From a virus: 64,000 bases of DNA. Shown here piece by piece: positions 27,210 to 64,000 of the stretch; positions within the stretch are counted from its first letter, which is position 1, and every line of letters starts with the position of its first letter. Under the pieces are notes generated by a model. That model was not told the DNA's origin and did not search any database. It saw only the letters and a list, made by a program, of their open reading frames with translations. The DNA lies in IMG/VR virus record IMGVR_UViG_3300000976_000009, positions 109,151 through 173,150 of that record. One strand, written 5' to 3'. Position numbers and translations under genes: made by a program.

Positions 27210-28667
27210 ATGGCTAGATTACTAGATGCAATGAGAACTGGAGATGCAGTTACTCAAAACGGAATGAAGACAAATTCTTCAACTTTAAACCACTGTGTGG
27301 ATTTATTTTCAATGATTGGTGCCGCAAGAGGTGCTGACAAGCAAAGAAAAATTAACAACTTTATTAAAGCTTTCAATGAGGATGCCCTTACAGCTATGAA
27401 AATAGTCTTTTGGGTAAGAGATGTTAGAGGTGGTGCTGGTGAAAGACAAACTGGTATTGATATTATGACTTATTTAGCTGATAACCATACTGAGGTTATG
27501 AGGAAGAATATTCACCTTATTCCAGAGTATGGGAGATGGGCTGATATATTACCTTTACTTGATACTAAATTGGGTGATGATGCATTGACATTAATTGCTA
27601 AGGGTCTTGAAGGTGGTGATGCTCTTTGTGCAAAGTGGTGTCCAAGAGGTAACGGTAACAACAGAGATAAGAAGAGATGGGCTAAGGCAATTAGAAACCA
27701 TTTAGGTCTTGAACCAAAAGCATATAGAGCATTAGTTGTAGGTATGTCAGATACTGTTGAGCAAAAAATGTGTGCTAGGGAATTTGAAGCAATAAATTAT
27801 GGTCATGTTCCTTCAAAGGCAATGTCTGACTATATGAAGGCTTTTGGTAGGAGAGATTATGATAGGTTTTCTAAGTTCCTTGACTCAGTAAAGAAGGGTG
27901 AAGCTAAGATTAATGCTGGTGCCGTATACCCATACGATATTACAAAGAACATGCGTAATGGGAGTGCTTCTGGTGCTGATGTACAATGGGATGCATTACC
28001 TAACTATATGGAAGGTAATGTTGAGAGAGTTATGCCAATGGTTGATGTTTCTGGTTCTATGAGTTGTGCTGCTGGTAGAGCTCAAAGGGGTAGAGATTAC
28101 ACTAGTTGCATGGATGTTGCAATTTCATTAGGTTTATATATTTCAGAGAGAAACGAGGGTGTATTCAAGGATGCATTTTTAACATTCTCAGCTAAACCAG
28201 AGCTACAAATTACTAAAGGTACTTTGTCTGAGAGATATAAGCAAATGAGTAGAGCTAATTGGGGTATGAACACTAACCTTACAGCTGCATTTTCAACTAT
28301 GTTGGATAGTGCAATAAGAGGAAATGTTCCAGCCAATGAAATGCCAACTATGATTCTTGTCTTAAGTGATATGGAATTTGATAGATGCGCTTCTGGTGGG
28401 TGGAATAAGTCTGCCCTTGAGATGATGACTGAGAAGTATAAAGCAGCTGGGTATGATATACCAAAGGTTACTTTCTGGAATATTAACTCTATGAATGATA
28501 AAAATAAACCAGCACAACACAATGATAGAGGTGTTGCACTGGTATCTGGATTTAGTCCAGCAATATTAAAGACATTATTGTCTGGTGTGTTTACTCCAGA
28601 GTTGACACCATATGAGATGATGATGGAAGTTATTGGTGATGACCGATATTCGGCAGTAACCATATAA
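27210..28667 (+). CDS. DUF2828-like protein (TROVE/Ro60-like helical region + vWA domain)
   Basis: VTQNG..TNSST, FWVRDVRGGAGER, IPEYGRWAD, AKWCPR, vWA MIDAS VDVSGSM, VLSDMEFD, FWN, LVSGFSP. Confidence 0.75.
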   Translation: MARLLDAMRTGDAVTQNGMKTNSSTLNHCVDLFSMIGAARGADKQRKINNFIKAFNEDALTAMKIVFWVRDVRGGAGERQTGIDIMTYLADNHTEVMRKNIHLIPEYGRWADILPLLDTKLGDDALTLIAKGLEGGDALCAKWCPRGNGNNRDKKRWAKAIRNHLGLEPKAYRALVVGMSDTVEQKMCAREFEAINYGHVPSKAMSDYMKAFGRRDYDRFSKFLDSVKKGEAKINAGAVYPYDITKNMRNGSASGADVQWDALPNYMEGNVERVMPMVDVSGSMSCAAGRAQRGRDYTSCMDVAISLGLYISERNEGVFKDAFLTFSAKPELQITKGTLSERYKQMSRANWGMNTNLTAAFSTMLDSAIRGNVPANEMPTMILVLSDMEFDRCASGGWNKSALEMMTEKYKAAGYDIPKVTFWNINSMNDKNKPAQHNDRGVALVSGFSPAILKTLLSGVFTPELTPYEMMMEVIGDDRYSAVTI

Positions 28668-28715
28668 GAGATAGAGAGACTATGTACTTCGGTATATGGT
28701 CTTTCTTGTTTTACG

Positions 28716-28912
28716 CTATCTAAAAGAATACTTTCTGCAATCGTAAACTTAAATTTGATTTATATATACAAACAGAAAAGAGGGGTTTCAAGTAAGTTCC
28801 CCCAAGAATGTGCATATTCGTATCCACATTACGGACGTTTAGTCTAACAAACAAAAATTTATATTCCTAACAGAGCTATGGAATTAAAATTAGCTACCGT
28901 ATTCTGGGATAG
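28716..28912 (+). ncRNA. CAGCAA-family small RNA, copy A (long form)
   Basis: Terminal stems CTATC/GATAG and AGAATAC/GTATTCT; CTGCAA after the 5' strand; internal AAAGAGGGGTTT..TTCCCC and TAGCT blocks shared with copy B; followed by a terminator. Confidence 0.6.
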
Positions 28913-29017
28913 AAAAAAATTAAGGTCTAACAAATTGTTAGACCTTTTTTTATGCTTTACACTTTAAAATATTTTCATTAAGTTTGTATTATAACAAATA
29001 AATGAAGCTATAATGAA

Positions 29018-29281
29018 ATGAAAATAGTAGTAAAACATGTTGACAACTTAAATAGTTCGTTAATTAAAACAAGGGAAGAAGTACCACAATATTTAGTGTA
29101 TTTAATGACTGATGATAATATTTCAATTAGTTGTGATATTACAAATGGTAATATTGATAAATTAAAATTAATCAATAATTTACAAAGTGGTTATAGTGAA
29201 CAGTTACTAATTGAAGAAATAACACTTGATGTGTTTAAAAATAACGTATTATTAAATGAAGATAACAATGTCGGAAATTAA
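29018..29281 (+). CDS. Hypothetical protein
   Basis: ORF behind a TAAGTTTG promoter. Confidence 0.5.
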   Translation: MKIVVKHVDNLNSSLIKTREEVPQYLVYLMTDDNISISCDITNGNIDKLKLINNLQSGYSEQLLIEEITLDVFKNNVLLNEDNNVGN

Positions 29282-32406: not shown

Positions 32407-32615
32407 TAGCATTAACAAATAGGGCAGTTCAAGAGGATTTATATAAGATTTTAAATCTTAAAAAAGACCCATATGTTTTGACTGGAGATAACGTTGGTGA
32501 ATATAAATTAGTTACAAAAACTAGTGATACTAGTACAATGTCTTACCCATATAAGACTAAAGAAGCTTGTTATAGTGACTATAATGAGATAATCAGAATT
32601 AAAAATTTATTATGA
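32403..32615 (+). CDS. Hypothetical protein
   Basis: ORF track, ATGA overlaps. Confidence 0.5.
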   Translation: MIALTNRAVQEDLYKILNLKKDPYVLTGDNVGEYKLVTKTSDTSTMSYPYKTKEACYSDYNEIIRIKNLL

Positions 32616-33352
32616 TACAAGGAAAAAGTAATTACAATTGGTATGCAGATTTTCAAAATTTTGCTATAAATCATATAGGTGTTTCAAGTATGGAATTCCA
32701 AAATTGGGAAAGGTTACAGAATACATTATATAATAATGTTGCAACTGTTAATGTTGGGGCATCATTAACGCCATATGTTCCAGAGCCAAATAAAATGGAA
32801 GTAACAATGATTGATATCTTCTCTAGAATGATGATGGATAGAACACTTTGGTTAGCTGGACCAGTGAATGACCAAATGAGTACAGTTGTTCAAGCACAAC
32901 TACTTTATTTGGACCAATTAGATTCATCGGCTGATATTATGGCATATATTGATTCACCAGGTGGTTCAGTTAAATCGGGTCTATCTATTGTAGATACAAT
33001 GAATTATGTGGGTGCTAATGTGTCAACAATTTGTACAGGTATGGCAGCATCTATGGGTTCAATATTATTAGGTAATGGTGAAAAAGGTAAGAGATTTATT
33101 TTACCACATTCTAAAGTAATGTTACACCAAGTATCATACGGAGCCCAAGGTAATGTTCAAGATGTTGATATATCTCATCGAGAAGCATTAAAATATAATG
33201 ATGAATTATTCAGATTACTAGGTTCTTTTTGTGATAAAGACCCAGAAGAAGTACTAAAGGATGCTACCAGAGATTTATGGATGACTGGTGCAGAAGCTGT
33301 TGAATATGGTATTTGTGATGATATTATTGTTAAAAAAAATGATATCAAATAA
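32612..33352 (+). CDS. clpP: ATP-dependent Clp protease proteolytic subunit
   Basis: DIFSRMMMDR, YIDSPGGSV, GMAASMGS (Ser), VMLHQ (His), RDLWM (Asp). Confidence 0.93.
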   Translation: MIQGKSNYNWYADFQNFAINHIGVSSMEFQNWERLQNTLYNNVATVNVGASLTPYVPEPNKMEVTMIDIFSRMMMDRTLWLAGPVNDQMSTVVQAQLLYLDQLDSSADIMAYIDSPGGSVKSGLSIVDTMNYVGANVSTICTGMAASMGSILLGNGEKGKRFILPHSKVMLHQVSYGAQGNVQDVDISHREALKYNDELFRLLGSFCDKDPEEVLKDATRDLWMTGAEAVEYGICDDIIVKKNDIK

Positions 33353-33453: not shown

Positions 33454-33817
33454 GGGGATGACTTTGGATTCGACAATCTATAGTCGTAAATAGTAAGCAT
33501 GTACTGCGAGGTAAATAAGCAGTTAAAATAATAGATGCAACTTTTTTAAATGGAAATATTTTTAATATTGACGAAAACTTCCTTGCTAACGCTTCTGTAG
33601 AAGTAGTTGCTGGAGAGGCAATCGCAGCCTAACCGATGCGTTACGGGTTAATAGCCCACAGGAACGAACAATCTCAAGTTGCTAAAATAGGGAAACGTTG
33701 CTTGACAGCTCTAACGTAAAAAATAGTCAAAGATTTGCTAATTTATAAAAATTAGATAAACATGTAGAAATCCGTTGAAGAATAGATTACACGAGGGTTC
33801 GACCCCCTCCATCTCCA
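33454..33817 (+). ncRNA. ssrA: tmRNA
   Basis: 5' GGGGATGACTTTGGATTCGAC; 3' T-arm GAGGGTTCGACCCCCTC + CATCTCCA; G3.U70 pair; tag frame 33552-33632 GNIFNIDENFLANASVEVVAGEAIAA* after TAAAT. Confidence 0.93.
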
Positions 33818-33937
33818 CGCAAACGCTTTTATACTAAATTCGCTAGTGTAAAAATAAGACCTCATATGGGGACAGAAAAGCTCACAATCGGTGGGCTTTT
33901 TTTGTTTCCAGAAGTATTTATACTTAAAGGACTTATT

Positions 33938-36655: not shown

Positions 36656-36685
36656 TTGCTATTTAGAAAAAGTTTAGTATCTTTG
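36656..36685 (+). promoter_or_regulatory. Bacteroidota-type promoter driving the small-RNA cluster
   Basis: TTG-N19-TATCTTTG. Confidence 0.7.
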
Positions 36686-36744
36686 TATTGTTGTTAATGA
36701 TAACACAAAAAGAAAAAGTTCTTTATTTTATTGAAATTAAAAAA

Positions 36745-36905
36745 TTGTCATAAGAATGATTGCAGCAAATTGTACAAATTCAAACAATCTACAGTTAAGA
36801 AGAAAGAGGGGTTTTAGTATAGGCTTCCCCACGGTAAATCCAAATTGAATAGCTGCCATGTTGCTAGGCTCATGTAAAAATAGCTTAAACTATCATTCTG
36901 GACAA
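36745..36905 (+). ncRNA. CAGCAA-family small RNA, copy B (long form)
   Basis: TTGTC/GACAA and AGAATGAT/ATCATTCT terminal stems, CAGCAA, blocks shared with copy A. Confidence 0.6.
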
Positions 36906-36916
36906 ACTTATTATAT

Positions 36917-37014
36917 GGGGAGGTAGTGTAAGAGAGAAAAGAATTTACTTCGGTAAGTTTTCGAGCACGGTAATCCACCAATTACAAGTACAGGTTCAAG
37001 TCCTGTCTTCCCCA
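36917..37014 (+). ncRNA. tRNA-like RNA with a hairpin inserted in the D-loop and a 6-nt anticodon loop
   Basis: GGGGAGG/CTTCCCC-A acceptor, GTGT/GCAC D-stem, UUCG-capped insertion, GTAAT-CCACCA-ATTAC, canonical T-arm ACAGG-TTCAAGT-CCTGT. Confidence 0.7.
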
Positions 37015-37019
37015 CAAAT

Positions 37020-37071
37020 GGAGATGCATGCATTGAAAGGCATGATTTAAGAGCAATACCTAACATCTCCA
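37020..37071 (+). ncRNA. D-armless mini-tRNA-like RNA 1
   Basis: GGAGATG/CATCTCC-A; CATGC-ATTGAAAG-GCATG hairpin; second hairpin with CAATA loop. Confidence 0.6.
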
Positions 37072-37076
37072 CAATT

Positions 37077-37171
37077 GGGTTTATTAGTATTACCTACAAA
37101 CGAAAGTGACTTTAGTTGACACATCGATTTGAATGGTTGAGACTACGCTAGTTCATGACTAGATAAGCCCA
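37077..37171 (+). ncRNA. Degenerate tRNA-like RNA
   Basis: GGGTTTA/TAAGCCC-A acceptor, CTAG-TTCATGA-CTAG T-arm; core not canonical. Confidence 0.45.
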
Positions 37172-37182
37172 CAGCGTTTAAC

Positions 37183-37246
37183 GGTTAGTTACAGCAAATT
37201 ATTTAAAACATTAGATTCAAACTCTAAAGCGTTAAAGACTAACCAG
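37183..37246 (+). ncRNA. CAGCAA-family small RNA, copy C (short form)
   Basis: GGTTAGTT/GACTAACC stem, ACAGCAA, internal TTAGA-TTCAAAC-TCTAA hairpin. Confidence 0.55.
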
Positions 37247-37313
37247 ATAGATATTCCGCTAGAATATTTGAATTTTAGCGAATACAACTCTTTGATTCCC
37301 TTGACACTTACTT

Positions 37314-37413
37314 GGGAACTTAAGGTGGAAGACCTTTTCGAAGAGCACATGGTAATGAGTATATTAAATCTTAGGGTTTTATGATACTAAGAAGTTCAAT
37401 CTTCACATTCCCA
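37314..37413 (+). ncRNA. Degenerate tRNA-like RNA
   Basis: GGGAA/TTCCC-A ends, GAAG-TTCAAT-CTTC T-like arm. Confidence 0.3.
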
Positions 37414-37418
37414 CACAT

Positions 37419-37491
37419 TGCGGGGTAGAGCAGTTGGTAGCTCGCAAGGCTCATAACCTTGAGGTCGCTGGTTCGAGTCCAGCCCCCGCTA
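37419..37491 (+). tRNA. tRNA-Met(CAT), initiator-like
   Basis: Canonical cloverleaf, 1:72 mismatch, CAAGG-CTCATAA-CCTTG. Confidence 0.9.
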
Positions 37492-37496
37492 CACAT

Positions 37497-37547
37497 GGAG
37501 ATGCACTTATTGTGAAAAGTGATTAGGAGTCAATACCTACATCTCCA
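37497..37547 (+). ncRNA. D-armless mini-tRNA-like RNA 2
   Basis: Same acceptor as RNA 1; CACTT-ATTGTGAA-AAGTG; TAGG-AGTCAATA-CCTA. Confidence 0.6.
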
Positions 37548-37552
37548 CATAC

Positions 37553-37608
37553 GGTTCGGATAACTATCCCCAAGACAGTTATTAGGAAGTTAAATTTTCC
37601 CCGAACCA
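37553..37608 (+). ncRNA. D-armless mini-tRNA-like RNA 3
   Basis: GGTTCGG/CCGAACC-A; ATAACT/AGTTAT hairpin; GGAAG-TTAAAT-TTTCC T-like arm. Confidence 0.55.
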
Positions 37609-37613
37609 CTAAA

Positions 37614-37672
37614 AGAGTCCGTTCAGCAAAAATTTATAATTTTTTTTAGGATAAAAACAAAAGGTGACTCTG
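37614..37672 (+). ncRNA. CAGCAA-family small RNA, copy D (short form)
   Basis: AGAGTC/GACTCT stem, TTCAGCAA, internal TTTTT-TTAGGAT-AAAAA hairpin. Confidence 0.55.
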
Positions 37673-37684
37673 TATTATTAAACT

Positions 37685-37710
37685 AAAGCTAACTTAAGTT
37701 AGCTTTTTTT
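37685..37710 (+). terminator. Rho-independent terminator ending the small-RNA cluster
   Basis: AAAGCTAACTTAAGTTAGCTTTTTTT. Confidence 0.7.
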
Positions 37711-37712
37711 AT

Positions 37713-37802
37713 GTGTAAGTAATACTTGGGTGGGTGTACAACCACTATTAACAAGAGGATTAGACCGTATACAGGTTGGAGGTTCGAACCCTTCCTTATG
37801 CT
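37713..37802 (+). ncRNA. tRNA-like element directly upstream of the release-factor gene
   Basis: GTGTAAG/CTTATGC acceptor-like stem, GGAGG-TTCGAAC-CCTTC T-arm, no recognisable anticodon arm. Confidence 0.45.
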
Positions 37803-37833
37803 CGATAATAACAACTTCCTAAAACCAAAAACG

Positions 37834-38503
37834 ATGGAAACTATTTATTTAGAAATCAAAGATGCCCAAGGTGGTAAAGAATCGAAGTTATTGGTGGGAG
37901 ATATGAGAGATATCTACATCAAAACAGCGAAGAATAATAACTTCAAATGAACTGCAATTACAGATAGAGACGGATTTGTCTGTCTATGTCTTTAGCGGTG
38001 TTGGTGTAAAGAAAGTATTCAAGAACGAAGTAGGAACCCATACGTGGCAACGAGTATCTCCAACTGAAAAAAGAGGGAGAACCCATACTTCATCAATCAC
38101 GGTAGCAGTATTAGATAAACCAAAATACAATGAAGTCGAAATCAGACCCGATGAAGTTCGTATAGAAAGGACTATTGGTACTGGGAAAGGTGGTCAAAAC
38201 AAAAACAGGAGAAGTACTTGTATTGTTATGACACACTATGCAACAGGAATAAAGGTTGTACGTGATGGTAGAAAACAACACAAGAATTTAGAGGATGCTT
38301 ACAAGGAAATGAAGAAGCGAGTAAATGATTACCATAAGAATGGTCACATTGAAAATGAATCATCCCAACGTAAGCAACAAGTTAGTGTTACTGATAAGAG
38401 AAGAACCTATAAAGTTAAGACTGGTTTAGTTGAAGACCATATAACAGGTAAGTCAACTAAGATTAAGAATATCCTTAGAGGTAAAATCGAATTACTACAA
38501 TAA
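37834..38503 (+). CDS. Class-I peptide chain release factor homolog lacking domain 1; needs UGA readthrough (37948-50) and a +1 frameshift at CTT-TAG (37990-95); about 222 aa
   Basis: LEIKDAQGGKES..DM..IY, then *TAITDRDGFVCLCL, then +1 SGVGV...NEVGTHTWQRVSPTEKRGRTHTSS...GKGGQNKN...RRTY; collinear with RF1/RF2 domains 2-4. Confidence 0.8.
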
Positions 38504-40624: not shown

Positions 40625-40697
40625 AACTAATATTTATAAATAAAAAAACCCACAGCAATTGCTGTGGGTTTTTTTATGTTTGAATATATTTATAGAT

Positions 40698-41276
40698 ATG
40701 ATGAAGATTGGTAAAATATATGAATCATTAATTAATGAAATTCAAAGTGGTGGATATAGAGCGTATCATGGAACACCTAAAGAGATAAATAAATTTGTCG
40801 ATGATTTTGTTGGTGGAGAAGATGCCCACGACCAAGAGGGACCAGGTATTTATTTCACTACTGATTTTGAGGATGCCAGTGGTTATGGGTCATACATTTA
40901 TTCAGTTAGAATAAATGGGGATAAATTTTTAGATGATGAAAATCCAGCATCTAATGTTGATGTTGAAGAATTGGTATCTCTAATTAAAATGAGTGAAGAT
41001 TGGGAAATGAATGCTCAAGATTGGGCTGAGGACCCAGAACATGGTGCTTATGAAGCAGCACATAGTGCTATCCAATATAATGATACTGAAAGAGATGTCT
41101 TCCAACAAATATGGGTCGATTTCTATAGATATAAAGCAGTTGACTATGTTAGAAATATGGTAAAATTAGGTTATGATGGGATGGTTGTTACTGGTTATAG
41201 GGACCGTGAAAACATCAAACATATTATAGTTTACAATCCATCAATAATTGAAGTTATAGATTTAGATAGAATATGA
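40698..41276 (+). CDS. ADP-ribosyltransferase-fold protein (putative)
   Basis: AYHGT..F, GPGIYFT....A..Y, GYDG, IIVYNP. Confidence 0.5.
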   Translation: MMKIGKIYESLINEIQSGGYRAYHGTPKEINKFVDDFVGGEDAHDQEGPGIYFTTDFEDASGYGSYIYSVRINGDKFLDDENPASNVDVEELVSLIKMSEDWEMNAQDWAEDPEHGAYEAAHSAIQYNDTERDVFQQIWVDFYRYKAVDYVRNMVKLGYDGMVVTGYRDRENIKHIIVYNPSIIEVIDLDRI

Positions 41277-42076: not shown

Positions 42077-42157
42077 GGGAATAGAATGAATTGTACACGG
42101 CTAGTACGAGTCAGCCTCTAAAACTGATAATATGTGGTTCGAGTCCACCTATTCTCA
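42077..42157 (+). tRNA. Atypical amber-suppressor-type tRNA (anticodon CTA)
   Basis: GGGAATA/TATTCTC-A, 9-nt connector, GTAC/GTAC D-stem, TCAGC-CTCTAAA-ACTGA (CTA at 42118-20), GTGG-TTCGAGT-CCAC. Confidence 0.7.
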
Positions 42158-48718: not shown

Positions 48719-49288
48719 ATGATTATAAAACACATACACGCTAATGTTGGTATTTTTAATGGTTCACTATATTTTACTGTAGATAATAGATTATTGAGGG
48801 TTGGTGTTTCAACACCCAACTATAATGATTATAATGAGTGGCGATTAGATGAATGGTGCTTATCTAAAGACCCATATAATCCAGATGGTAACCAAATTGA
48901 ATTATCACCATATAAGTTTATTGATATAGAAATTAATAATATTGATTTAAAAATGTTGGAATATTCATCATCTTTAAGTGACTTAAATAACGAATATGAA
49001 ATTGATAGCGAATTAATAAAAAGTTATTCAGATATTGATTTATATTTGTCTGGAATTAAATATTCAAATAATAATCGAATGTCAATATATATTGAAAGTA
49101 AAAATGATTATATTAATTTAGATAGTTTTGATGAATCTAAAGAGACACCATTTCAAAAAGTTTTTTTTAAGATTTTAGAAGGATTTAGAAATGGGTTTAA
49201 ACAAAAAATTATTGATGAGGAAGAAAATAAAATTAAACAAAAGAAATTAAATACTAAGTTAATTAAAGATGCTTTTGAAAAACTTTAA
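48719..49288 (+). CDS. Hypothetical protein
   Basis: ORF behind a TATATTTG promoter. Confidence 0.55.
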   Translation: MIIKHIHANVGIFNGSLYFTVDNRLLRVGVSTPNYNDYNEWRLDEWCLSKDPYNPDGNQIELSPYKFIDIEINNIDLKMLEYSSSLSDLNNEYEIDSELIKSYSDIDLYLSGIKYSNNNRMSIYIESKNDYINLDSFDESKETPFQKVFFKILEGFRNGFKQKIIDEEENKIKQKKLNTKLIKDAFEKL

Positions 49289-49297
49289 TTAATAAAT

Positions 49298-49385
49298 AGA
49301 GAGTAAACCTATCGGGGTATAGGGGCAGTTTGCTAAACTGTACGGACATGAAATAAGGTCTGCGGGTCGGGACCGCTGCTCTCTG
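49298..49385 (+). tRNA. tRNA-Ser(GCT)
   Basis: GCAGT-TTGCTAA-ACTGT, variable arm, atypical T-loop. Confidence 0.75.
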
Positions 49386-49404
49386 CAAACTTAATTTTTG
49401 TAAT

Positions 49405-49619: not shown

Positions 49620-50252
49620 ATGGAATTAAAAATTGACCAAATTGCTAAGGGGACTAGAATTATATCTGGTGAGCAAGCTAAAGAAAGGCGTATCTTATTA
49701 AACCAAATTATTGAATTGGTTGAGTTAGAAGGCTATAATGAAATTATTCTACCTTGTGTGGAAAAATCTGAGGTATACACAGATAAAGCTGGTCAAGAAA
49801 TCCTTGGTCAAATGTATACATTCCCAGACAAGGGTGGCAGAAGTCTATGCTTAAGACCAGAAGGTACCGCAACTGTTCAACTATTAGCTGATAAATACTA
49901 TCCTACACAGAAGGATGTTAAGTTGTGGTATTTTGAAAGGTGTTGGAGATATGAGAAACCACAAGCTGGTAGATACAGAGAATTCTTTCAATTCGGATGT
50001 GAATGGGTTAACCCAAGAGACCCAGAAAAAGCAAAACAAGAACAAATAGAACTATCTAAGAAATTAATTGGGTTGAAGACTACGGAATTTGAATTAAATG
50101 ATTCAGCTAAGCGTGGTCTTTCTTATTATGATGGGGATGGTTTTGAAATTTCAGTACCCACTCTTGGTGCTCAAAAACAAGTTATGGGTGGTGGTAAATA
50201 TAAACAAGGTATTGGTTTTGCAATTGGTTTTGATAGATTAATGCTTTGTTAA
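49620..50252 (+). CDS. Histidyl-tRNA synthetase catalytic core only (no anticodon-binding domain)
   Basis: KGTR, MYTF.DKGGR.L.LRPEGTA, RYEKPQAGRYREFFQFG.E, RGLSYY, GGGKY, GFAIGFDRL. Confidence 0.82.
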   Translation: MELKIDQIAKGTRIISGEQAKERRILLNQIIELVELEGYNEIILPCVEKSEVYTDKAGQEILGQMYTFPDKGGRSLCLRPEGTATVQLLADKYYPTQKDVKLWYFERCWRYEKPQAGRYREFFQFGCEWVNPRDPEKAKQEQIELSKKLIGLKTTEFELNDSAKRGLSYYDGDGFEISVPTLGAQKQVMGGGKYKQGIGFAIGFDRLMLC

Positions 50253-52390: not shown

Positions 52391-53299
52391 ATGAAGAATG
52401 CATTAGGAATAGAAGTTACAAGACCAAACGATGTTTTGGTAATTATGCGTGGAATACCAGGTGCTGGTAAGTCTACAGTAGCTAAAAGATTAGTCAAAGA
52501 AGGGGTGATTCACTCAACAGATGATTTAATTGAGGCTACTGGTGATTATTTAGGTTATTTTGCTGAAATTAAGGCAACCAATAACTGGGCAAAGCATGGT
52601 AGAATGCATTCTAAGAATTTCAAAAACGCATTGACTTCAATGACTGAGGGTGTTTCACCAGTTATTATTGATAACACAAATATTAAGGCTTCTGAGGCTA
52701 AAAAATATGTTATGGCTGCTTTAGAGTTAGGATATGCAAATGAAAACATTGAGTTTGTTGAAGTTGGTACTGCTGGTTTAACTGCTGAGGTATTAGCTAA
52801 TAGAAATACTCATGGTGTACCATTGGAAACTATTGAAAGAATGATTAAGTCAATGAATTCGGTTGGACCACTTACAGTTGAATCTGTAGTTAAGGCTAAA
52901 GATATGTACAAGAAAAAACCAAAACTATTTGCTTCCGTAATATTAGATGATTCTTCTAAAAGTAAACTAGTTACAGCATTGTCTCATTATATACCAAAAG
53001 GGTGGGAAATTATTACACACCATATGACAATTAATTTTGGTAATGGTCTTGGTAAAGATAGAATAGAAGATAAAGGTAAGGTTATTGGTTTGGTTGCAAC
53101 TGAAATTGGTGTTTCAGATATGGCAGTTGCAGTCAAAGTCCACGGATACCCAAGTGATAATGATATACCACATATAACAATTGCAGTAAATAGAGCTGGT
53201 GGTGGTAAACCTGTTATGTCAAATGAGATTACAAATTGGGAAAAAATGAACTCACATATTAATTTGAGTGGGGTTGTAACTGAGGAAAAATTAAACTAA
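52391..53299 (+). CDS. Polynucleotide-kinase-like P-loop domain fused to a 2H phosphoesterase (tRNA-ligase CPDase-like)
   Basis: MRGIPGAGKST, HSTDD, IIDNTN, RNTHGVP; HHMTI and PHITI 2H motifs. Confidence 0.8.
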   Translation: MKNALGIEVTRPNDVLVIMRGIPGAGKSTVAKRLVKEGVIHSTDDLIEATGDYLGYFAEIKATNNWAKHGRMHSKNFKNALTSMTEGVSPVIIDNTNIKASEAKKYVMAALELGYANENIEFVEVGTAGLTAEVLANRNTHGVPLETIERMIKSMNSVGPLTVESVVKAKDMYKKKPKLFASVILDDSSKSKLVTALSHYIPKGWEIITHHMTINFGNGLGKDRIEDKGKVIGLVATEIGVSDMAVAVKVHGYPSDNDIPHITIAVNRAGGGKPVMSNEITNWEKMNSHINLSGVVTEEKLN

Positions 53300-53745
53300 T
53301 GGCAGAAGTAATTAAACCACCATTCAGAAAACTTTCAATATTCTTAGCTGGTTCCATTGAGATGGGGGTAGCTGAGGATTGGCAGTCTAAGATTGAAGAA
53401 GAGTTGATGGATTGTAATGTAACAGTATTTAACCCTAGAAGAGATAGTTGGGATAATTCATGGGAACAAACAATTCATAACCCAGAATTCAAAGAACAAG
53501 TTGAATGGGAATTAGACCATTTAGATAAATGTGATATTATCTTAATGTATTTTGATGAAAATACAAAGAGCCCGATTTCTTTATTGGAATTGGGTCTCTA
53601 TGCTTCATCTGGTAAAATGATTGTCTATTGTCCAGAAGGATTTTGGAGAAAAGGTAATGTGGATATCGTTGCGGGTAGATACGATATAAAACAAGTTCAG
53701 TCTTTAAATGAATTATTAACCGCAGTTAGAAATTTGGCAAAATGA
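53299..53745 (+). CDS. Nucleoside 2-deoxyribosyltransferase-like protein
   Basis: IFLAGSI, WQ, FNPRR, QVEWE, SPISLLELG. Confidence 0.8.
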   Translation: MAEVIKPPFRKLSIFLAGSIEMGVAEDWQSKIEEELMDCNVTVFNPRRDSWDNSWEQTIHNPEFKEQVEWELDHLDKCDIILMYFDENTKSPISLLELGLYASSGKMIVYCPEGFWRKGNVDIVAGRYDIKQVQSLNELLTAVRNLAK

Positions 53746-53915
53746 AATATTCAAATAAAAAAACTGGTGTCGTAGTTAATGTAATTGATTTAATGGCGGT
53801 TGGTATGGGTGACGAAATTGGTACAACATTTATCATATATAAATTTAATACTGATTTAGATTTCCATAGAGTTATGAATTCCAAAGAGTTTTTAAAAACA
53901 TATGAAAAAATATAA
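53742..53915 (+). CDS. Small hypothetical protein (57 aa, not in ORF track)
   Basis: ATGA overlap, fills the gap. Confidence 0.45.
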   Translation: MKYSNKKTGVVVNVIDLMAVGMGDEIGTTFIIYKFNTDLDFHRVMNSKEFLKTYEKI

Positions 53916-53916
53916 A

Positions 53917-54897
53917 ATGACTGAGTTACATGAAATAAGATTCACAAAATCAAGCGCACCATTTGGTTGGATGGGTAATATGTCTAGATGTAAGATATTC
54001 TTTGAAGAACAAGAATGGCAAAGTACAGAAGCATTATTCCAAGCACTTAGATTCCCAGAAGATTCCCCAATTCGAGAAGAAATAAGGTTGGCTAAAAATG
54101 GTTATGAAGCAAAACAAGTTGCTAAGCTTAATAGAACAAAGATGTCTGTTGTACCAACCTCAGAAGAAGATTTAGATAATATGAGACTTTGTATTGCCCT
54201 AAAGATAGAACAACATAAAGAACTTAGGGATATTTTAATTGGGTCTAAGGGTATACCAATATATGAAGATGTAACAAAGCGTGGTGAAGGTAATAGTAAT
54301 TTAATTTGGGGAGCAATAAAACAAGATGATGGAACTTGGAAGGGTGATAACATAATGGGTGAGCTTTGGGTAGAATTACGTGAAAAATTATTAATGCAAA
54401 ATTCAACAAAAATGGGATTTGATGAACCTAAAGTAGAAATTGAAACTGAACGTAGATTTTTATTGAAAAGTTTACCATCTCACGTTAGATGGGATGATAT
54501 TATTGAAATATCTCAAACTTATATTAGTGAAAAAAACGCTAATATAGTTGAGAGAGTTAGGAATAGTTTTAGTCTTAATTTAGAATTTGATATTTGGACC
54601 CACACAACTAAAGATAGATTAACAGACATGTCTGTTAATGAAGTGGAGAGAGAAATTGGTGTTGATGAATATAATAAATTCATTGATATGGGTAAACGTT
54701 CGATAAATAAGCGTAGAAATATTAAGAAAGTTGATAATCTTAAGTGGGAAATTGATGTTTTTAGTAATTTAGTTATTGCCGAAATTGAACTACCGAGTGA
54801 GGATTATAATTTAGTAATACCAGATTGGTTAAAACCACACATTATTATGGAAATAACTGGTATGCATCAATTTAGTAATTCAAATCTGGCTATATGA
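53917..54897 (+). CDS. NADAR-domain + CYTH-domain fusion
   Basis: STEALFQA.RF, K.EQH..LR..L, IWG...G.N.MG.LW..LR; then EIETERRFLL, ISQTY, RVR, KRR, WEIDVF, IAEIEL. Confidence 0.78.
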   Translation: MTELHEIRFTKSSAPFGWMGNMSRCKIFFEEQEWQSTEALFQALRFPEDSPIREEIRLAKNGYEAKQVAKLNRTKMSVVPTSEEDLDNMRLCIALKIEQHKELRDILIGSKGIPIYEDVTKRGEGNSNLIWGAIKQDDGTWKGDNIMGELWVELREKLLMQNSTKMGFDEPKVEIETERRFLLKSLPSHVRWDDIIEISQTYISEKNANIVERVRNSFSLNLEFDIWTHTTKDRLTDMSVNEVEREIGVDEYNKFIDMGKRSINKRRNIKKVDNLKWEIDVFSNLVIAEIELPSEDYNLVIPDWLKPHIIMEITGMHQFSNSNLAI

Positions 54898-56450
54898 ATT
54901 TTAGAGATAAACCAATATTGGGTATGATTCATTGTTCTGGTACGAACAAAGTAGTTGATGCTATTAAAGAAGTTAAAATCTTACAAGAAGAGGGTGTTGA
55001 TGGTGTGATTATTGAAAACTATCATGGTTCTATTTCAGACGTTAATGAGGTTTTGAAGGCAATTAGAAAAGATAGTAATATTAGTATAGAAATTGGTATT
55101 AATATTTTACCTAATGATTTCATAATAGCTTTTGCATTAGCTAGAGAATATGGTGCTAGTTTCATACAACTTGATTATGTTTCTGGTAATTATGAAAACA
55201 CAACACCATTTGATGTTGAATTATATCAACAAATTAGGGATGATAATAAGGATATTGTAGTACTTGGTGGTGTCCACCCTAAATATTATAAACCAATAAA
55301 AGGTAGTATTCTAGAAGATGATATCAATAATGGAATTAAATTGGTTGATGCAATAGTTGTAACTGGAGCTGGCACTGGTAAGGAAACACCATTAGATAAA
55401 ATTAAAAGTTTTAGAAAAATTCTTGGGGACTTCCCATTAATAATCGGTGCTGGTATTACCCCAAATAATGTTTATGAACAACTTTCATATGCTGATGGGG
55501 CTATAGTTGGTAGTTGTTTTAAAAAATATGGTAGAACTCAAAGTTTAATTAAAAGAGATTTAGTTGAGGAATTAATGTTTAAGGTTAATAAATTAATTAA
55601 TAAACCATGTAAATTTGACCATAATGGTGAATGTTTAATTTGTGATTGTTGGTCTATCAATTGTGCTTGGGATAGACTATATAAATGTGACTATAAATAC
55701 GAATCAAAAGAAGAATTGGAAGATATGTTTAACAATGAAAAAAAAATTAAATATGCTGTACAAGCAGTCATATTAAATGACAAAGGAGAAGTCCTAGCAG
55801 TAAGTAGAAAGGACAATCACAACGACTTTGGATTAGTTGGTGGAAAGGTTGACCTAGAAGACTTGAACCCAGAAGAAGCAATGGCTAGAGAGACATTTGA
55901 AGAAACAGGTCTTAGGATTAATACCGCAACTATGCAAGTAGTATTTCAAATGCATAAAGATGGGTATATGGGAATAACTTATTTGATTCGTCAATGGTCT
56001 GGTGAAATTAATACCAATGAACCACATATGGTTAAATGGGTGCCATTTGAAGTCGTTATGAATGGTTCATTTGGTAATTGGAATACGATGGTTCATAATT
56101 CTTTAACTAGTATGGGTATTGAACATAAACTTCACCCAGATGCCACTAGGAAATATGTTTTTGCATTAGAAGAAGATACAGATGAGGGTGACGGGACTTA
56201 TTTATTTTACGTATCCCCAATCTATGATGAAGATGGTAATGGTCAATGGGCTTATTATGATAGAGAAAATGACACAATGGAAGAAGAAATTAGTAATATT
56301 TTAGAAGGTGTCAAAACTAATGTTGATTTTTTAGATGAAGTTAGTATGAAATTATATGGTGGTGATTCAGAATACACTAAAGAAGAGGTTATTAAATTTC
56401 TTACTGATGCTGGTCTTTTTGAAGATAAATTCAAACCTTTTTTAAAATAA
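54894..56450 (+). CDS. BtpA/SgcQ TIM-barrel + NUDIX + acidic C-terminal fusion
   Basis: ILGMIH, GVDGVIIENY, IGINIL.ND, DAIVVTGAGTG, ADGAIVGS.FK; GGKVD....PEEAMARETFEETGL. Confidence 0.75.
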   Translation: MNFRDKPILGMIHCSGTNKVVDAIKEVKILQEEGVDGVIIENYHGSISDVNEVLKAIRKDSNISIEIGINILPNDFIIAFALAREYGASFIQLDYVSGNYENTTPFDVELYQQIRDDNKDIVVLGGVHPKYYKPIKGSILEDDINNGIKLVDAIVVTGAGTGKETPLDKIKSFRKILGDFPLIIGAGITPNNVYEQLSYADGAIVGSCFKKYGRTQSLIKRDLVEELMFKVNKLINKPCKFDHNGECLICDCWSINCAWDRLYKCDYKYESKEELEDMFNNEKKIKYAVQAVILNDKGEVLAVSRKDNHNDFGLVGGKVDLEDLNPEEAMARETFEETGLRINTATMQVVFQMHKDGYMGITYLIRQWSGEINTNEPHMVKWVPFEVVMNGSFGNWNTMVHNSLTSMGIEHKLHPDATRKYVFALEEDTDEGDGTYLFYVSPIYDEDGNGQWAYYDRENDTMEEEISNILEGVKTNVDFLDEVSMKLYGGDSEYTKEEVIKFLTDAGLFEDKFKPFLK

Positions 56451-58347: not shown

Positions 58348-59475
58348 ATGTTAAAAATAGTAGCTTACATAAAGAAGTATGGTCTTGAAAAGACATTAAA
58401 GGACTTTAATTTAAAATCTAGAGACTACCCAAACAAGGTTTTGATTAAGTATGACCAAATAGCATCGTCTATGGGGGAATCTATAGTACAAGAAGCTAGA
58501 GGTCTTATACTGGAAAAAGGAACATGGAAGGTTATGTCATTACCATTCTACAAGTTCTTCAATTCAGCTGAGGGTCATGCGGCAAAAATTGATTGGGATA
58601 CTGCACACGTACTTGAGAAGTGTGACGGTACTATGATACAATTATATTGGGACTGGAACAAGAACACTTGGTGGGCTGGTACTACAGGTACAGCTGAGGG
58701 TGAAGGTGAGGTAAACAACAAGTTGGGTACTACATTCAATGAATTGTTTTGGAAGACTGTTGCAGATAAGTATGGTCTTACACCAGACTCTAGATTCCTA
58801 GAGAAGACATTTGTATATGTGTTTGAGTTAACTACTCCATATAATATTGTTGTAAAGCCACACGGTGAGTCTTCTGTTACATTGCTTGCAATGAGAAACA
58901 GAAATACACTTGATGAATTACCATATAATATTTTAAGAATTAAAGCTGAGGAAATTATTAATGTACCATTAGTTAAGTCATTCGACTTGAACGAAGGTAA
59001 TGTTGGTAAGTTGTTGAGAACATTCGAAGACATGATGTGGTATGAAGAAGGTTATGTTGTTGTTGATGGGAATTTCAATAGAATTAAGATTAAGAACCCA
59101 GCATACGTTGCTGTGCACCACTTGAAGTCTAAGACTTCTGAGCATGCAATTATGGGTGTTGTTAAGACTAATGAGATTGATGAGTTTGCTGCTACTTTCC
59201 CAGATAGAAAAGAAGAGATTGAAGGTTTGAAAGATAATTATGATGCTCTTATTCTTAAATTGGAAAATGGTTGGAATATCTTGAAAGAGAAAAAACCAAA
59301 GAATATTACACCAAAGGAAAGTAAGAAGTTCGCTATGGCTGTTTTTGAAGTTACTAAGGAATTAGGGCTTGAGAAGTTCCACGGTATGTTCTTTGCACTT
59401 AAAGATGGGAAGGTAGATAATGTGAAGGAATTCATGTTCAATTACGATAACAAAACACTATACAGAATGCTATAA
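58348..59475 (+). CDS. RNA ligase 1 family (T4 Rnl1-like)
   Basis: EARGLI, PFYKFFN, EKCDGT (motif I), FEL, EEGYVV, RIKIKN..Y. Confidence 0.85.
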   Translation: MLKIVAYIKKYGLEKTLKDFNLKSRDYPNKVLIKYDQIASSMGESIVQEARGLILEKGTWKVMSLPFYKFFNSAEGHAAKIDWDTAHVLEKCDGTMIQLYWDWNKNTWWAGTTGTAEGEGEVNNKLGTTFNELFWKTVADKYGLTPDSRFLEKTFVYVFELTTPYNIVVKPHGESSVTLLAMRNRNTLDELPYNILRIKAEEIINVPLVKSFDLNEGNVGKLLRTFEDMMWYEEGYVVVDGNFNRIKIKNPAYVAVHHLKSKTSEHAIMGVVKTNEIDEFAATFPDRKEEIEGLKDNYDALILKLENGWNILKEKKPKNITPKESKKFAMAVFEVTKELGLEKFHGMFFALKDGKVDNVKEFMFNYDNKTLYRML

Positions 59476-60704: not shown

Positions 60705-60754
60705 TTTGGTAGTTACGAATAATTTTCGTAAGTTTGTATGCAAACATATATATT

Positions 60755-61255
60755 ATGGAATATACAGAAAAAAATTACAGAGAAGCGAGAATGGTTTCGA
60801 TTAAAGCTCACGGAACACAGGATTACGATGGGGTTTTCCCATATAAGAAACATTTAGATGATGTGGTTGATGTATTAAAGAGATTTGGATTCTCTGGTAA
60901 GTATATTGTTGCTGGTTATTTACATGATATTATTGAAGATACTGCGTTGTCTTACAATAAAGTTAAGAAGCATTTTGGATATGAGGTTGCTGAGATGGTT
61001 TATTGTGTTACTGATGAACTTGGTAGGAACAGAGAAGAAAAGAAAACAAAAACACTACCTAAGACTGCTTCTAACCCAGATGCCATTATTCTTAAATTAG
61101 CTGATAGAATTGCAAATATTGAGCATGGTGGTAAGGTTGATATGTATAGAAAAGAGTATGAGGTGTTCCACCAATTTTTATTCGCAAGAACTCCAGATGG
61201 GGCTAAAGAAATGTGGAGATGTTTAGAAAAATTGTTAAAATTAGAAACAGTATAA
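60755..61255 (+). CDS. HD-domain (p)ppGpp hydrolase-like protein (small alarmone hydrolase/Mesh1-like)
   Basis: AH..Q, PY..H, LHDIIEDT, FG..VAEMV..VTD, LKLADRIANI. Confidence 0.82.
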   Translation: MEYTEKNYREARMVSIKAHGTQDYDGVFPYKKHLDDVVDVLKRFGFSGKYIVAGYLHDIIEDTALSYNKVKKHFGYEVAEMVYCVTDELGRNREEKKTKTLPKTASNPDAIILKLADRIANIEHGGKVDMYRKEYEVFHQFLFARTPDGAKEMWRCLEKLLKLETV

Positions 61256-62651: not shown

Positions 62652-62675
62652 CATAAAAGTAAAGTTAAAATAAGA

Positions 62676-63023
62676 ATGACTTATAATTTTGACGGAGTAA
62701 TTAAAGTAATAAATCCATTACAAACATGGGATAGTGGATTTAGTAAAAGGGAAATAGTTTTAACAACTATGGATGAAAAATTCGAACAATTTATTAAATT
62801 CGAATTTCTAAAAGAGTCAGCTGAAAAGCTAAATGAGTTTAAGGTTGGTGATAAAGTTAAAGTTGTGTTTGCCCTTAGAGGTAATGAATACAATGGTAAG
62901 TATTATACTAATTTGAATGGTATTGCAATAACACATCTTAAAGATGATGGTACGATAGAAACGCCTACAGTTGAATCGCTTGTAACTAAATTTGATGAAA
63001 GTGATGATGATTTACCATTTTAA
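62676..63023 (+). CDS. DUF3127 family SSB-like OB-fold protein
   Basis: FSKREIV, F.KFEF, LRG.EYNGKYY.NL, acidic DDDLPF tail. Confidence 0.8.
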   Translation: MTYNFDGVIKVINPLQTWDSGFSKREIVLTTMDEKFEQFIKFEFLKESAEKLNEFKVGDKVKVVFALRGNEYNGKYYTNLNGIAITHLKDDGTIETPTVESLVTKFDESDDDLPF

Positions 63024-63032
63024 AAAAATAGA

Positions 63033-64000
63033 ATGATGGAACCGAAATTATTTAGAATGCCTAGCATCGAAGCATTTAGACATGTTATTCAACAAGTAAC
63101 ACATAGAGCTAGATATAGAGGTGATGATGAAACGGGGCAACCAATTTATGAGAATTGCGCTTTACCCACCTTAAAATTTAGAGGTAGTGTGAAGATGCAT
63201 GGAACTAATGCTGGGATTGTATTTATGTGGGACAAAGATAGTTCTACTTACAATATGCATGCTCAATCTAAGGGTCTTATAATTACACCAGTTAAGGATA
63301 ATGTGGGTTTTGCCGCATTTGCACATACTAGCGGTGTTGATAATTTAGTTGAAGAAATTTTAGGTGATTTCGATGGTGAACAACCAGAGGTTATTAGAGT
63401 TTATGGTGAATGGATTGGTAGAAAAATACAAAAAGGAACACCTTATAATACATTAGATAAAATGTTTGTAATATTCGCAATTAAGATAGATAATAAATGG
63501 TTATCTGAGGATAAATTATCTATGGTTAAGATGTCAGATAAAAGAATATTCAACATTCTAGACTACCCAACATATGAGATATTAGTTGACTTTAATAACC
63601 CAAAGATTGCTGCTGAGGCAATGGCTAAGTTAGTTGATAATGTTGAAAAAGAATGTCCAGTAGGTAAAGCCTTTGGGATTGATAATGGTGTTGGTGAAGG
63701 TATTGTTTGGGTTTGTACAACTGATGGTTGGGGTAGTTCTAGATACTGGTTCAAAACTAAGGGTGAAGAACATAAGTCTTCTGGTACTAAGGAGAAGGTG
63801 CCAGTTGATATTGAAAGACTTAATTCTATTAACGAATTAGTTGATTCATTTCTTACTAATTCAAGATTAGAGCAAGGTTTAGACCAAATTAGGGAGAATC
63901 ACCAAGAGTTATCTAGAAAATCTACTGGATTTTATGTTAAATGGGTTAGTGGTGATGTTGTTAAAGAAGAATTAGATACTATTGTTGGAAATGGTTTCGA
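63033..64000 (+). CDS. RNA ligase 2 family (Rnl2-like), 3'-partial, not in ORF track
   Basis: VKMHGTNAG motif I, YGEW.G..IQKG, F.IFAI, GVGEGIVW, FKTKG..H; frame open to the window end. Confidence 0.85.
   Translation, partial: MMEPKLFRMPSIEAFRHVIQQVTHRARYRGDDETGQPIYENCALPTLKFRGSVKMHGTNAGIVFMWDKDSSTYNMHAQSKGLIITPVKDNVGFAAFAHTSGVDNLVEEILGDFDGEQPEVIRVYGEWIGRKIQKGTPYNTLDKMFVIFAIKIDNKWLSEDKLSMVKMSDKRIFNILDYPTYEILVDFNNPKIAAEAMAKLVDNVEKECPVGKAFGIDNGVGEGIVWVCTTDGWGSSRYWFKTKGEEHKSSGTKEKVPVDIERLNSINELVDSFLTNSRLEQGLDQIRENHQELSRKSTGFYVKWVSGDVVKEELDTIVGNGF

Follow-up and report, generated by a model that had tools for sequence, protein, structure and literature searches.

Candidate ribosome-read control elements among the translation-support genes of a large phage

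The window, a stretch of 64,000 nt (positions 109,151-173,150 of IMGVR_UViG_3300000976_000009), belongs to a phage genome of 353 kb, labelled G000 below. The components that a first-pass annotation had listed as co-occurring here were each located in place, all on the plus strand:

27210-28667, plus strand: vWA-type protein DUF2828/DUF7788 (family profile matches)
about 28725-28905, plus strand: CAGCAA-type stem element 3' of the vWA gene (sequence)
32612-33352, plus strand: ClpP (family profiles)
33454-33820, plus strand: tmRNA (Rfam 65 bits against a cut-off of 47)
36678-37803, plus strand: non-coding cluster of three CAGCAA-type elements, tRNA-like units and tRNA-Met (37419-37492)
37685-37710, plus strand: intrinsic terminator-like hairpin, 3' of the tRNA-Met cluster and 5' of the factor gene (sequence)
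37834-38503, plus strand: short RF1-derived release factor, domains 2-4, with GGQ and S-P-T (PCRF and RF-1 matches on both pieces)
37948-37950, plus strand: factor gate 1, an in-frame TGA at codon 39 (putative read-through)
37990-37996, plus strand: factor gate 2, CTT TAG C without a Shine-Dalgarno-like element (putative +1 frameshift)
42083-42156, plus strand: tRNA-like gene with a CUA anticodon at 42118-42120 (Rfam 22 bits; ARAGORN at a relaxed threshold)
42184-42540, plus strand: Pth2-fold gene whose codon 4 is TAG (42193-42195) (PF01981, 39 bits)
42809-43033, plus strand: Acb2/Tad1 hairpin-domain protein (PF24729, 47.9 bits, cut-off 27)
43281-44435, plus strand: CCA-adding-type nucleotidyltransferase (profile matches, below the NCBIfam cut-offs)
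45151-45298, plus strand: leader-peptide attenuator with a promoter box at 45151-45158 (folds, homologous leaders)
45495-49386, plus strand: tRNA array (Trp, Ser, His, Asn, Ile, Met, Arg) with degenerate units and two HNH-type ORFs
49620-50252, plus strand: minimal HisRS catalytic core, 210 aa (family profiles)
52391-53299, plus strand: P-loop kinase fused to a 2H-type domain with two HxT motifs (AAA_33, PHROG polynucleotide kinase; motifs from the translation)
58348-59475, plus strand: Rnl1-type RNA ligase (family profiles)
60734-61255, plus strand: stand-alone HD domain, kin of the SpoT hydrolase domain (HD_4, N-terminal part of TIGR00691)
63033-64000, plus strand: Rnl2-type RNA ligase, extending past the window end (family profiles)

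The components had been described as known from large phages, which holds: together they form the translation-support kit of jumbo phages, for which tRNAs, Rnl1, Rnl2, kinase, 2H, CCA enzyme, PTH2, a TROVE-type protein, tmRNA and release factors have been reported (PMC7824862; PMC7162821). Recoding gates, a suppressor cassette and attenuators, as proposed here, do not feature in those papers' accounts of the kit. Degenerate tRNA-like units, the putative non-decoding mimics of the first-pass list, were also present, one of them (42083-42156) with a conserved CUA anticodon. The HD protein at 60734-61255 may be an alarmone hydrolase. The Acb2/Tad1-domain gene, absent from the first-pass list, belongs to a family of anti-defence signal sponges.

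The "TROVE-like" label of the vWA protein proved to be a resemblance only: the protein matched just DUF2828/DUF7788, and no solved structure was matched at E values up to 1. A YrlA-type partner RNA scored far below the Rfam cut-off and overlapped a tRNA; the CAGCAA-type elements had no Rfam match. The suggested partnership of the vWA protein with candidate RNAs was not upheld, since element counts per genome track the vWA gene only loosely.

Stop gates in a short release factor gene

The factor would be 222 aa long if both gates were passed. P0018, a full-length relative, matched RF1 with an E value of 2e-39, RF2 with 3e-23 and PrfH with 1e-11. Its RF1 match starts at residue 113 of E. coli RF1, and the family begins near residue 110, with domain 1 missing. 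GGQ is intact in the window copy and at 202/202 loci; the PxT site, which is S-P-T in the window, P-P-T at 178/202 loci and S-P-T at 15/202, aligns to P-V-T of RF1. The factor therefore shares GGQ with RF1 (prfA) and differs from it in missing N-terminal domain 1 and the full length. Assignment to PrfH was not supported, the C-terminal piece reaching 50.6 bits on TIGR03072 (cut-off 166.65); a PrfH-RtcB partnership was rejected, RtcB being missing from G000 and present in 4/34 records. PrfH/RFH, proposed to act in conflict-related rescue (PMC6514570), likewise has no domain 1, whereas the phage factor is closer to RF1, stop-gated and encoded in a genome without RtcB.

The call of a recoded release factor was borne out as to the gates: TGA and CTT TAG C are both present in the window and gating is kept in 196/202 distinct relatives, with differing sites and mechanisms; six are ungated. 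Left out of this count were two duplicates and five further loci, of which three were truncated 5', one lacked its N-terminus and one had an additional break. The gated loci comprised 79 with a shift at TGA, 42 with a shift at TAG, 34 with one TGA and 31 with two TGA; rarer types were TGA plus a TAG shift (5), TGA plus TAG (3) and those with TAA (2). UAG is used in 50 of the 196, and two gates stand in series at 40/202 loci. The column of gate 1 is TGA in many relatives. The base 3' of read-through TGAs was A in 61 cases, C in 41, G in 2 and T in none, as against T after 65/144 terminal TGAs. All shift sites in distinct relatives (129/129) read CTT + stop, 44 of them CTT TAG C; a Shine-Dalgarno (SD)-like element was found at 93/108 early sites versus 0/18 late sites, which belong to an AT-rich group. 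On the tree the gate type switches 21 times, at least 4-5 of these being forced by well supported branches. A hairpin followed by a T run lies just 5' of the factor start in most of the clade relatives listed.

The prfB +1 frameshift has in common with this gene CTT-stop-C in a class I release factor gene, and SD-free shift sites are functional in Flavobacteriales, as gate 2 would be; TAG occupies 0 of 8,164 prfB sites and yet is used in the phage factor (PMC12421855; PMC10798248; PMC3711429). The RF2 host gene prfB has TGA (rarely TAA) and an upstream SD, whereas the phage factor is RF1-like and has TAG and no SD. It further differs in its preceding read-through gate and in a position and mechanism that vary across the family. 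The family contradicts the rule that release-factor frameshift sites avoid UAG, and predicts a small factor of unusual stop specificity. A class I release factor of Mimivirus/Megavirus also needs one read-through and one frameshift; it is eRF1-like and from a eukaryotic virus, whereas the phage factor is bacterial-type, and the likeness is therefore convergent (PMC3521657).

Most of the listed database homologues of the factor are pieces of 150-190 aa, gated genes being mis-called as fragments in databases. There was no cultured phage carrying the factor among 55 matches, no cultured close relative of the phage by capsid, and no shared family among the factor neighbours in 11 bacterial records (35/92 ORFs scanned).

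An amber-gated Pth2-like gene and its tRNA neighbour

A CUA tRNA-like gene that the first-pass list had missed lies directly 5' of the Pth2-like gene. The window copy is degenerate, with only 22 bits in Rfam and no encoded CCA; canonical CUA tRNAs occupy the equivalent position in G003, G004, G006 and G007 at the default ARAGORN threshold. The gene at 42083-42156 is a putative, likely amber suppressor. The description "amber-gated Pth2" was correct as to the gate: TAG is codon 4, and a start of ATG, a few codons and TAG was found at 52/62 distinct Pth2-like loci. CUA tRNAs lay within 3 kb of 44/52 gated loci, 26 of them within 400 nt, and 8/52 had none within 3 kb. Four control records without a Pth2-like gene gave 1 plus-strand CUA call in 1.3 Mb at the same threshold. 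Among 61 early-stop candidates in G000, only the Pth2-like gene was gated in all 5 carriers.

The protein matched PF01981 with 39 bits, above the cut-off, and two NCBIfam models with 31 and 28 bits versus cut-offs of 126 and 82. Its predicted structure (pLDDT 93) matched archaeal Pth2 (2zv3) in Foldseek with a TM score of 0.75 and an E value of 2e-7; as modelled, the protein is of Pth2 fold. Pth2 catalysis involves roles of Lys, Asp and Thr. The active site of the phage protein is divergent and has lost the Pth2 catalytic residues: the Lys loop is shortened, and an invariant R-E-P-D stands in place of D-A-G-x-T-Q.

In the annotations of XacN1, RAS14 and Myrna, the Pth2-like matches are uninterrupted ORFs with no CUA tRNA next to them. 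In recoded phages, a phage-encoded CUA tRNA could open genes with in-frame TAG (bioRxiv 10.1101/2021.08.26.457843), as could the orphan CUA tRNAs of XacN1 (PMC5852040). The phage studied here differs from recoded phages in using the standard code, and a single adjacent gene is the only target found to be conserved; the CUA tRNA of a standard-code phage would thereby gain a concrete target.

Leader attenuators of the tRNA arrays

The attenuators of amino-acid operons (trp, his and the multivalent ilvGMEDA) are composed of a leader with sensing codons, a downstream antiterminator strand and an intrinsic terminator. The phage version shares this layout and differs in governing tRNA genes and in that it would sense four to ten array-matched amino acids. 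In the window, the antiterminator strand is at 45202-45212 and the terminator at 45259-45298, and the leader remnant (45171-45236) reads S-I-N-W-R-R-N-S... Contigs of both runs carry about 62 nt extra at 45169/45170, where the leader presumably starts. The absence of these letters from the window is apparently an assembly gap, and an identical gap pattern precedes another array at genome position 205847. A real deletion that makes the array constitutive was judged unlikely given the extra letters in both runs. The short ORFs at 45213 and 45220 were rejected as leaders because the relatives have a longer leader in which the Met at 45213 is internal.

Among related genomes, which are not independent samples for any of these switch statistics, an antiterminator of at least 9 pairs was found at 4/22 tRNA-proximal terminators versus 0/221 others, and one of at least 7 pairs at 11/22 versus 9/221. 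The fraction of leader residues matching their own array was 0.70 in 17 leaders versus 0.30 +/- 0.06 when permuted (0/20,000), and G040 and G042 pair mixed arrays with mixed leaders. The antiterminator duplex, scored in a 35-nt window picked after the data were seen, was -14.0 kcal/mol with its own terminator versus -9.1 kcal/mol with foreign ones (0/20,000), also within one array class; the own terminator ranked first in only 9/26 units. No Rfam leader family matched the attenuator at or above cut-off. The equilibrium fold of the full attenuator was the terminator (P 0.98) with every mask tried, so that read-through must be kinetic. The "possible attenuator" previously noted before the array thus gained a matched antiterminator and terminator and codon-matched leaders, and lost the short ORF at 45213 as its leader. 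Codon-matched leaders make tRNA carriage by phages testable: shortage of exactly those tRNAs should induce the arrays.

Proposed switches and competing readings

Taken together, these comparisons support the presence, well past chance, of conserved putative ribosome-read control elements on several components. Our preferred reading, with a probability of about 0.6, takes the stretch as a conserved grouping of known translation-support genes. Three genes or gene blocks within it each bear a conserved control element, likely a separate feedback switch read by the ribosome, by which supply would go up once decoding or termination weakens. At the arrays, slow translation of leader codons whose tRNAs run short would leave the antiterminator strand free and the array would be transcribed, while a ribosome reaching the leader stop would mask that strand and let the terminator form; the architecture is in place, and from it we infer the switching. 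The gates of the factor gene are equally plain. Full-length factor would be made only if the ribosome escaped UGA and then UAG, a sign of weak RF2- and RF1-type termination, and the product would then likely close its own gates by feedback. The PxT-type motif would suggest UAG/UAA specificity, yet UGA gates predominate in the family; for simple autoregulation the factor would have to read a wider range of stops. The Pth2-like gene is linked to its tRNA, and would be translated only if the CUA tRNA were matured, charged and able to outcompete the release factor at codon 4; suppression may then yield an active enzyme. The likely benefit of the switches is that translation would be kept going during infection, perhaps also under tRNA-depleting defences; the trigger may be host abortive-infection defence or ordinary translational load.

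The suggestion that components are wired to sense translational failure is thus supported in part, by the conserved stop gates, the suppressor-gated ORF and the leader attenuator as candidate sensing elements; one island-wide system is not supported. None of the three switches was found described in published literature. They bear on a long-open question, namely why phages carry tRNAs, release factors and, in standard-code genomes, suppressor tRNAs.

The elements could instead be fixed dose limiters or timers for a potentially toxic factor and hydrolase, staging tRNA synthesis with no sensing of failure. Overexpressed RF2 is toxic to B. subtilis (PMC12421855), the serial gates would give very low output, and a terminator precedes the factor gene. 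In F. johnsoniae, prfB shifts with an efficiency of only about 7% (PMC10798248). A limiter, however, would work without a stop at the site of slippage and without leaders whose codons follow the tRNA content of each array as it changes, and we consider this explanation unlikely. A more elaborate form of the switch model is doubtful too. It would be a wired translation-status circuit in which four codon-matched attenuators report and restock lost host tRNA classes, and a two-stop AND gate yields, once both host factors are failing and not before, a compact factor that reads every stop codon. The suppressor tRNA would cross-link the arms by opening the Pth2-like gene and diverting ribosomes from the UAG slip site of the factor, the factor would close both, and the whole would jointly defeat abortive infection that targets tRNAs or termination.

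It is improbable that the stretch is one integrated, inducible anti-abortive-infection system whose switches and repair enzymes were co-selected against host attack on translation. RNA repair and tRNA supply have been proposed as counter-defences (PMC7824862; PMC10264068), the Acb2/Tad1-domain gene lies inside the stretch, and co-occurrence among relatives is in part as such a system would have it: the genes from vWA through Rnl2 run in the same order in G000, G001, G003, G006 and G007 and partly in G004. G040, nested in the group with full support, jointly lacks the factor, the Pth2-like gene, the vWA protein, kinase-2H, Rnl1 and tmRNA, but such joint loss of neighbours also fits a block deletion. 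Against a single system, the parts assort partly independently: attenuators occur without the factor in G040 and G042, as does tmRNA in G042 and G043 (relatives' tmRNAs were called by Rfam, ARAGORN having missed most), and G005 has the factor with no Pth2-like match. HisRS, found in 5/34 records and within the clade in G000 only, is confined with the Acb2/Tad1 gene to G000 among nine whole records. The stretch itself is split by at least seven promoter boxes and intervening terminators, GC is unchanged at its edge, gated factors are also present in bacterial records without any neighbour in common, and no sensing element was found at the repair enzymes.

The view that pseudogene decay or faulty sequence explains the interruptions, or that TGA/TAG are sense codons throughout the phage, is hardly credible and already largely refuted: an intact canonical Pth2 elsewhere in G000 could make the gated copy dispensable and the window has its one apparent assembly gap at 45169/45170, but the same few stop columns recur over the 196 loci with GGQ intact, and the factor and Pth2-like stops lie within contigs that agree letter for letter (from the same sample and possibly the source, hence not an independent confirmation). 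Codes 4 and 15 were ruled out by genome-wide standard usage (code 11), and no genome-wide or block-wise TAG reassignment was found in the phage genome. Aligned Trp sites in G001 were TGG in 585 cases versus TGA in 2, and Gln sites had no TAG. Of the read-through loci, 51/55 passed the code-11 check, and TGG is used downstream in 69/69 genes.

Genome setting and component list

The source record (353,143 nt, direct terminal repeats, 32% GC, 60 tRNA genes and one tmRNA), of which the window covers bases 109,151-173,150, uses the standard genetic code. The stop codon of long ORFs is TAA in 216 cases, TGA in 29 and TAG in 20; alignment of this record (G000) with the related virus record G001 gave TGG 585 times and TGA twice at conserved Trp sites, and TAG at no Gln site. 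TAnnTTTG boxes lie 5' of genes at 27145, 33404, 36678, 38563, 41934, 43271 and 45151. Because they fit the Bacteroidota promoter consensus, the host is probably a member of the Bacteroidota. No GC step was found at 27 kb, the start of the supposed island, and the stretch from there on is an accessory arm of the phage genome, not a foreign island.

The first-pass annotation had proposed one integrated translation-rescue and anti-abortive-infection system over 27210-64000, and every component it named was found in the window. Taken as a list, these components are a known large-phage set: section 3.4.9 of PMC7824862 gives tRNAs, Rnl1, Rnl2, kinases, 2H enzymes, CCA enzyme, PTH2 and a TROVE-type protein, and PMC7162821 reports release factors and tmRNA. 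The claimed wiring is the point at issue. The annotation's list lacked a group of NAD/ADP-ribose-related genes (40659-41276 and 53299-56450): ART-PolyVal (ADP-ribosyltransferase-like), nucleoside deoxyribosyltransferase-like, NADAR and BtpA-Nudix.

Sequence comparison gives good support to the putative sensing elements of three switches, located as follows.

37834-38503 (+), short release-factor gene, with gates TGA 37948-37950 and CTT TAG C 37990-37996
42083-42156, CUA tRNA
42184-42540 (+), Pth2-like gene with TAG as codon 4
45151-45298, attenuator ahead of the tRNA array 45495-49386

Stop gates in a release factor and a Pth2-like gene

From its start the factor gene reaches TGA at codon 39 and, 14 codons further, CTT TAG C; the remainder, including GGQ, lies 3' of that site in the +1 frame. 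The predicted protein is RF1-derived and without domain 1; comparison with known release-factor families ruled out PrfH. The family was sampled from the best 79 of 376 viral, the best 80 of at least 587 metagenomic and 80 of 87 genome loci, with the single locus L001 and six huge-phage loci from GenBank added. Five loci that were damaged or cut were removed, as were two duplicates, which left 242 loci, or 202 distinct genes; of these, 196 have stop gates and 6 are ungated (nine loci were assigned by hand).

Gate types among the 202 distinct factor genes
Shift at TGA: 79
Shift at TAG: 42
One TGA: 34
Two TGA: 31
TGA and TAG shift (the window's own type): 5
TGA and TAG: 3
TAA-containing: 2, one with two tandem shifts

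CTT precedes the stop at 129/129 shift sites. The base 3' of read-through TGAs is A in 61, C in 41, G in 2 and T in none, in contrast with T after 65/144 terminal TGAs (Fisher p 2e-19, to which amino-acid constraint and kinship contribute). Code 4 was ruled out for read-through loci: 51/55 pass the code check, the other four having too few ORFs, and TGG occurs downstream in 69/69. A tree built from the factor C-terminal part has 21 changes of gate type. TAG is used by 50/202 factor genes, in contrast with 0/8,164 prfB shift sites in the accessible part of Prince et al. (PMC12421855), where nothing points to programmed shifting of prfA. An SD is absent at late TAG shift sites of the AT-rich factor group (0/18), which fits the SD-free shifting described for Flavobacteriales in the portion of PMC10798248 available. 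The window's factor shares its predicted read-through plus shift arrangement with the Mimivirus factor, where PMC3521657 calls it unique to those viruses. We infer recoding at the gates, feedback and stop specificity.

In the locus L021 (LR756511.1), a leader 5' of the factor's conserved start has two tandem +1 sites, the first CTT TAA C and the second CTT TGA C. The tRNA-Trp(CCA) at 45716-45789 has A at position 24, paired with U11, the change of the Hirsh UGA suppressor, and could favour UGA read-through. Gated short factors also occur in bacterial records, including many Myxococcota and one Cupriavidus plasmid (loci L250, L206, L257, L232, L221 and L197); those of Thiobacillus and Variovorax lie within or beside large tRNA arrays, and that of L203 adjoins a kinase-phosphoesterase-Rnl1 fusion.

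The Pth2-like ORF reads ATG, two codons, TAG and then the Pth2 domain. Eighty loci gave 62 distinct ones, a set biased to gated genes since the search alignment was built mostly from them: 52 have the gate, 8 were not put in the gated class and 2 stand at contig edges. Of the 52 gated loci, 44 have a CUA tRNA within 3 kb, and 26 have one within 400 nt. Three of the eight also have one, and inspection found an in-frame TAG 5' of the aligned part in all three; the other five have neither. At a relaxed ARAGORN setting, 1.3 Mb of records without the Pth2-like gene gave one CUA call. The window's CUA tRNA is degenerate (22 bits), and canonical ones stand at the equivalent place in four relatives (G003, G004, G006 and G007). 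Among 61 early-stop candidates in G000, only the Pth2-like gene is gated in all five relatives holding it. CUA tRNAs are reported for XacN1, without a target in the accessible part of PMC5852040.

The Pth2-like product has, as modelled, a Pth2 fold. Because its active-site residues differ from those of Pth2, and an ordinary Pth2 is encoded elsewhere in G000, G001 and G006, its activity may differ from that of ordinary Pth2. The second Pth2 of G000 (G000:C1:12022-12372) is canonical, ungated and 73% identical to that of G001. The promoter box at 41934 is followed by a 13-codon ORF (42009-42050), which lies ahead of the CUA tRNA. A tRNA call with a UUA (ochre) anticodon lies at G000:C1:188241-188313, within a Phe/Glu/Asp/Ala array.

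Putative leader attenuators of tRNA arrays

A survey of nine whole records and two partial ones found at least nine pairs between an upstream strand and the terminator 5' arm at 4/22 terminators lying no more than 450 nt from a tRNA, versus 0/221 others. Every such antiterminator strand falls in a leader of 24-40 codons, whose earlier codons name the array's amino acids: N-W-R-R-N-S precedes a Trp/Ser/His/Asn/Ile/Met/Arg array, Leu/Val/Cys runs a Cys/Val/Leu array, and Phe/Glu/Asp/Ala and Tyr/Gln/Pro/Lys/Thr/Gly runs arrays of those same tRNAs. Over 17 leaders the leader-array match was 0.70, versus 0.30 +/- 0.06 when the pairings were shuffled (0/20,000 as high). Antiterminators pair with their own terminators at -14.0 versus -9.1 kcal/mol for foreign ones (26 units, 0/20,000; also 0/20,000 among ten units of the window's class), in a test whose window was chosen post hoc, with one arm mis-cut and related genomes. 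Neighbouring windows gave -2.6 to -4.9 kcal/mol, and the own arm ranked first in only 9/26 units.

The finished RNA folds as the terminator (P 0.98), and therefore switching must be co-transcriptional. With a ribosome mask on the Trp or Arg codons the antiterminator stays formed; with a mask up to the leader stop it is gone. Three further arrays of this kind lie in G000 outside the window. As recorded, the leader in the window lacks a start codon. Contigs of both sequencing runs hold ~62 extra nt (length only) at 45169/45170, adjoining a two-copy promoter repeat, and the record appears to have lost them; their addition changes the promoter-terminator distance from 114 to ~177 nt, against 161-206 nt in relatives. 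A second array leader, in the genome 205847 region, shows the same truncation, and other repeat-adjacent features of the record may be affected.

Assortment of the parts and repeated RNA elements

Gene order is kept in six relatives, which were picked through the factor; the factor is absent from four near-complete relatives picked through the capsid. G040, nested inside factor carriers on a nine-gene core tree, is without the factor, Pth2-like gene, vWA protein, kinase-2H, Rnl1 and tmRNA. It retains ClpP, HD and Rnl2, as well as a CCA enzyme at a different place and an attenuator re-matched to its array. Because parts separate in G005 (factor without Pth2-like gene) and in G042 and G043 (tmRNA without factor), and HisRS occurs in 5/34 records and in its clade only in G000, while the joint loss in G040 is one event among neighbouring genes, the parts assort independently to some extent. 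Comparison of relatives upholds the proposed RNA-level sensing elements but not a single integrated anti-defence system. Speculatively, if the CUA tRNA decoded the UAG of the factor gene, the ribosome would be held in a frame stopping at codon 78, while at the UAG of the Pth2-like gene the tRNA would face competition from the factor. A counter-defence role for the stretch is plausible, since the gene at 42809 encodes an Acb2/Tad1 domain and phage tRNAs are hypothesised in PMC10264068 to counter anticodon nucleases.

Each switch would act in the manner of a known mechanism, yet outside a named family or on a new target. The portion of the open full-text literature covered, main texts only, describes neither this gated factor family nor the suppressor cassette nor attenuated tRNA arrays; the supplements of PMC7162821 and PMC7824862 may list these genes. 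The first 300,000 characters of PMC5009743 hold no term matches for the three switches, and the available parts of PMC6514570, PMC7918605, PMC3711429 and bioRxiv 10.1101/2021.08.26.457843 describe none of them.

A repeated CAGCAA-type element (short stem, CAGCAA-type motif, variable loop, closing stem), without a match in Rfam, occurs at the following positions.

28725-28905
36753-36899
37183-37245
37614-37672
genome 185588, 195548 and 207062

One copy lies 3' of the vWA gene, and one just 5' of the factor-preceding terminator in most clade relatives. A small three-way-junction-like element has two copies (37019-37072 and 37497-37549) with an identical outer closing stem, each immediately 3' of a tRNA or tRNA-like unit.
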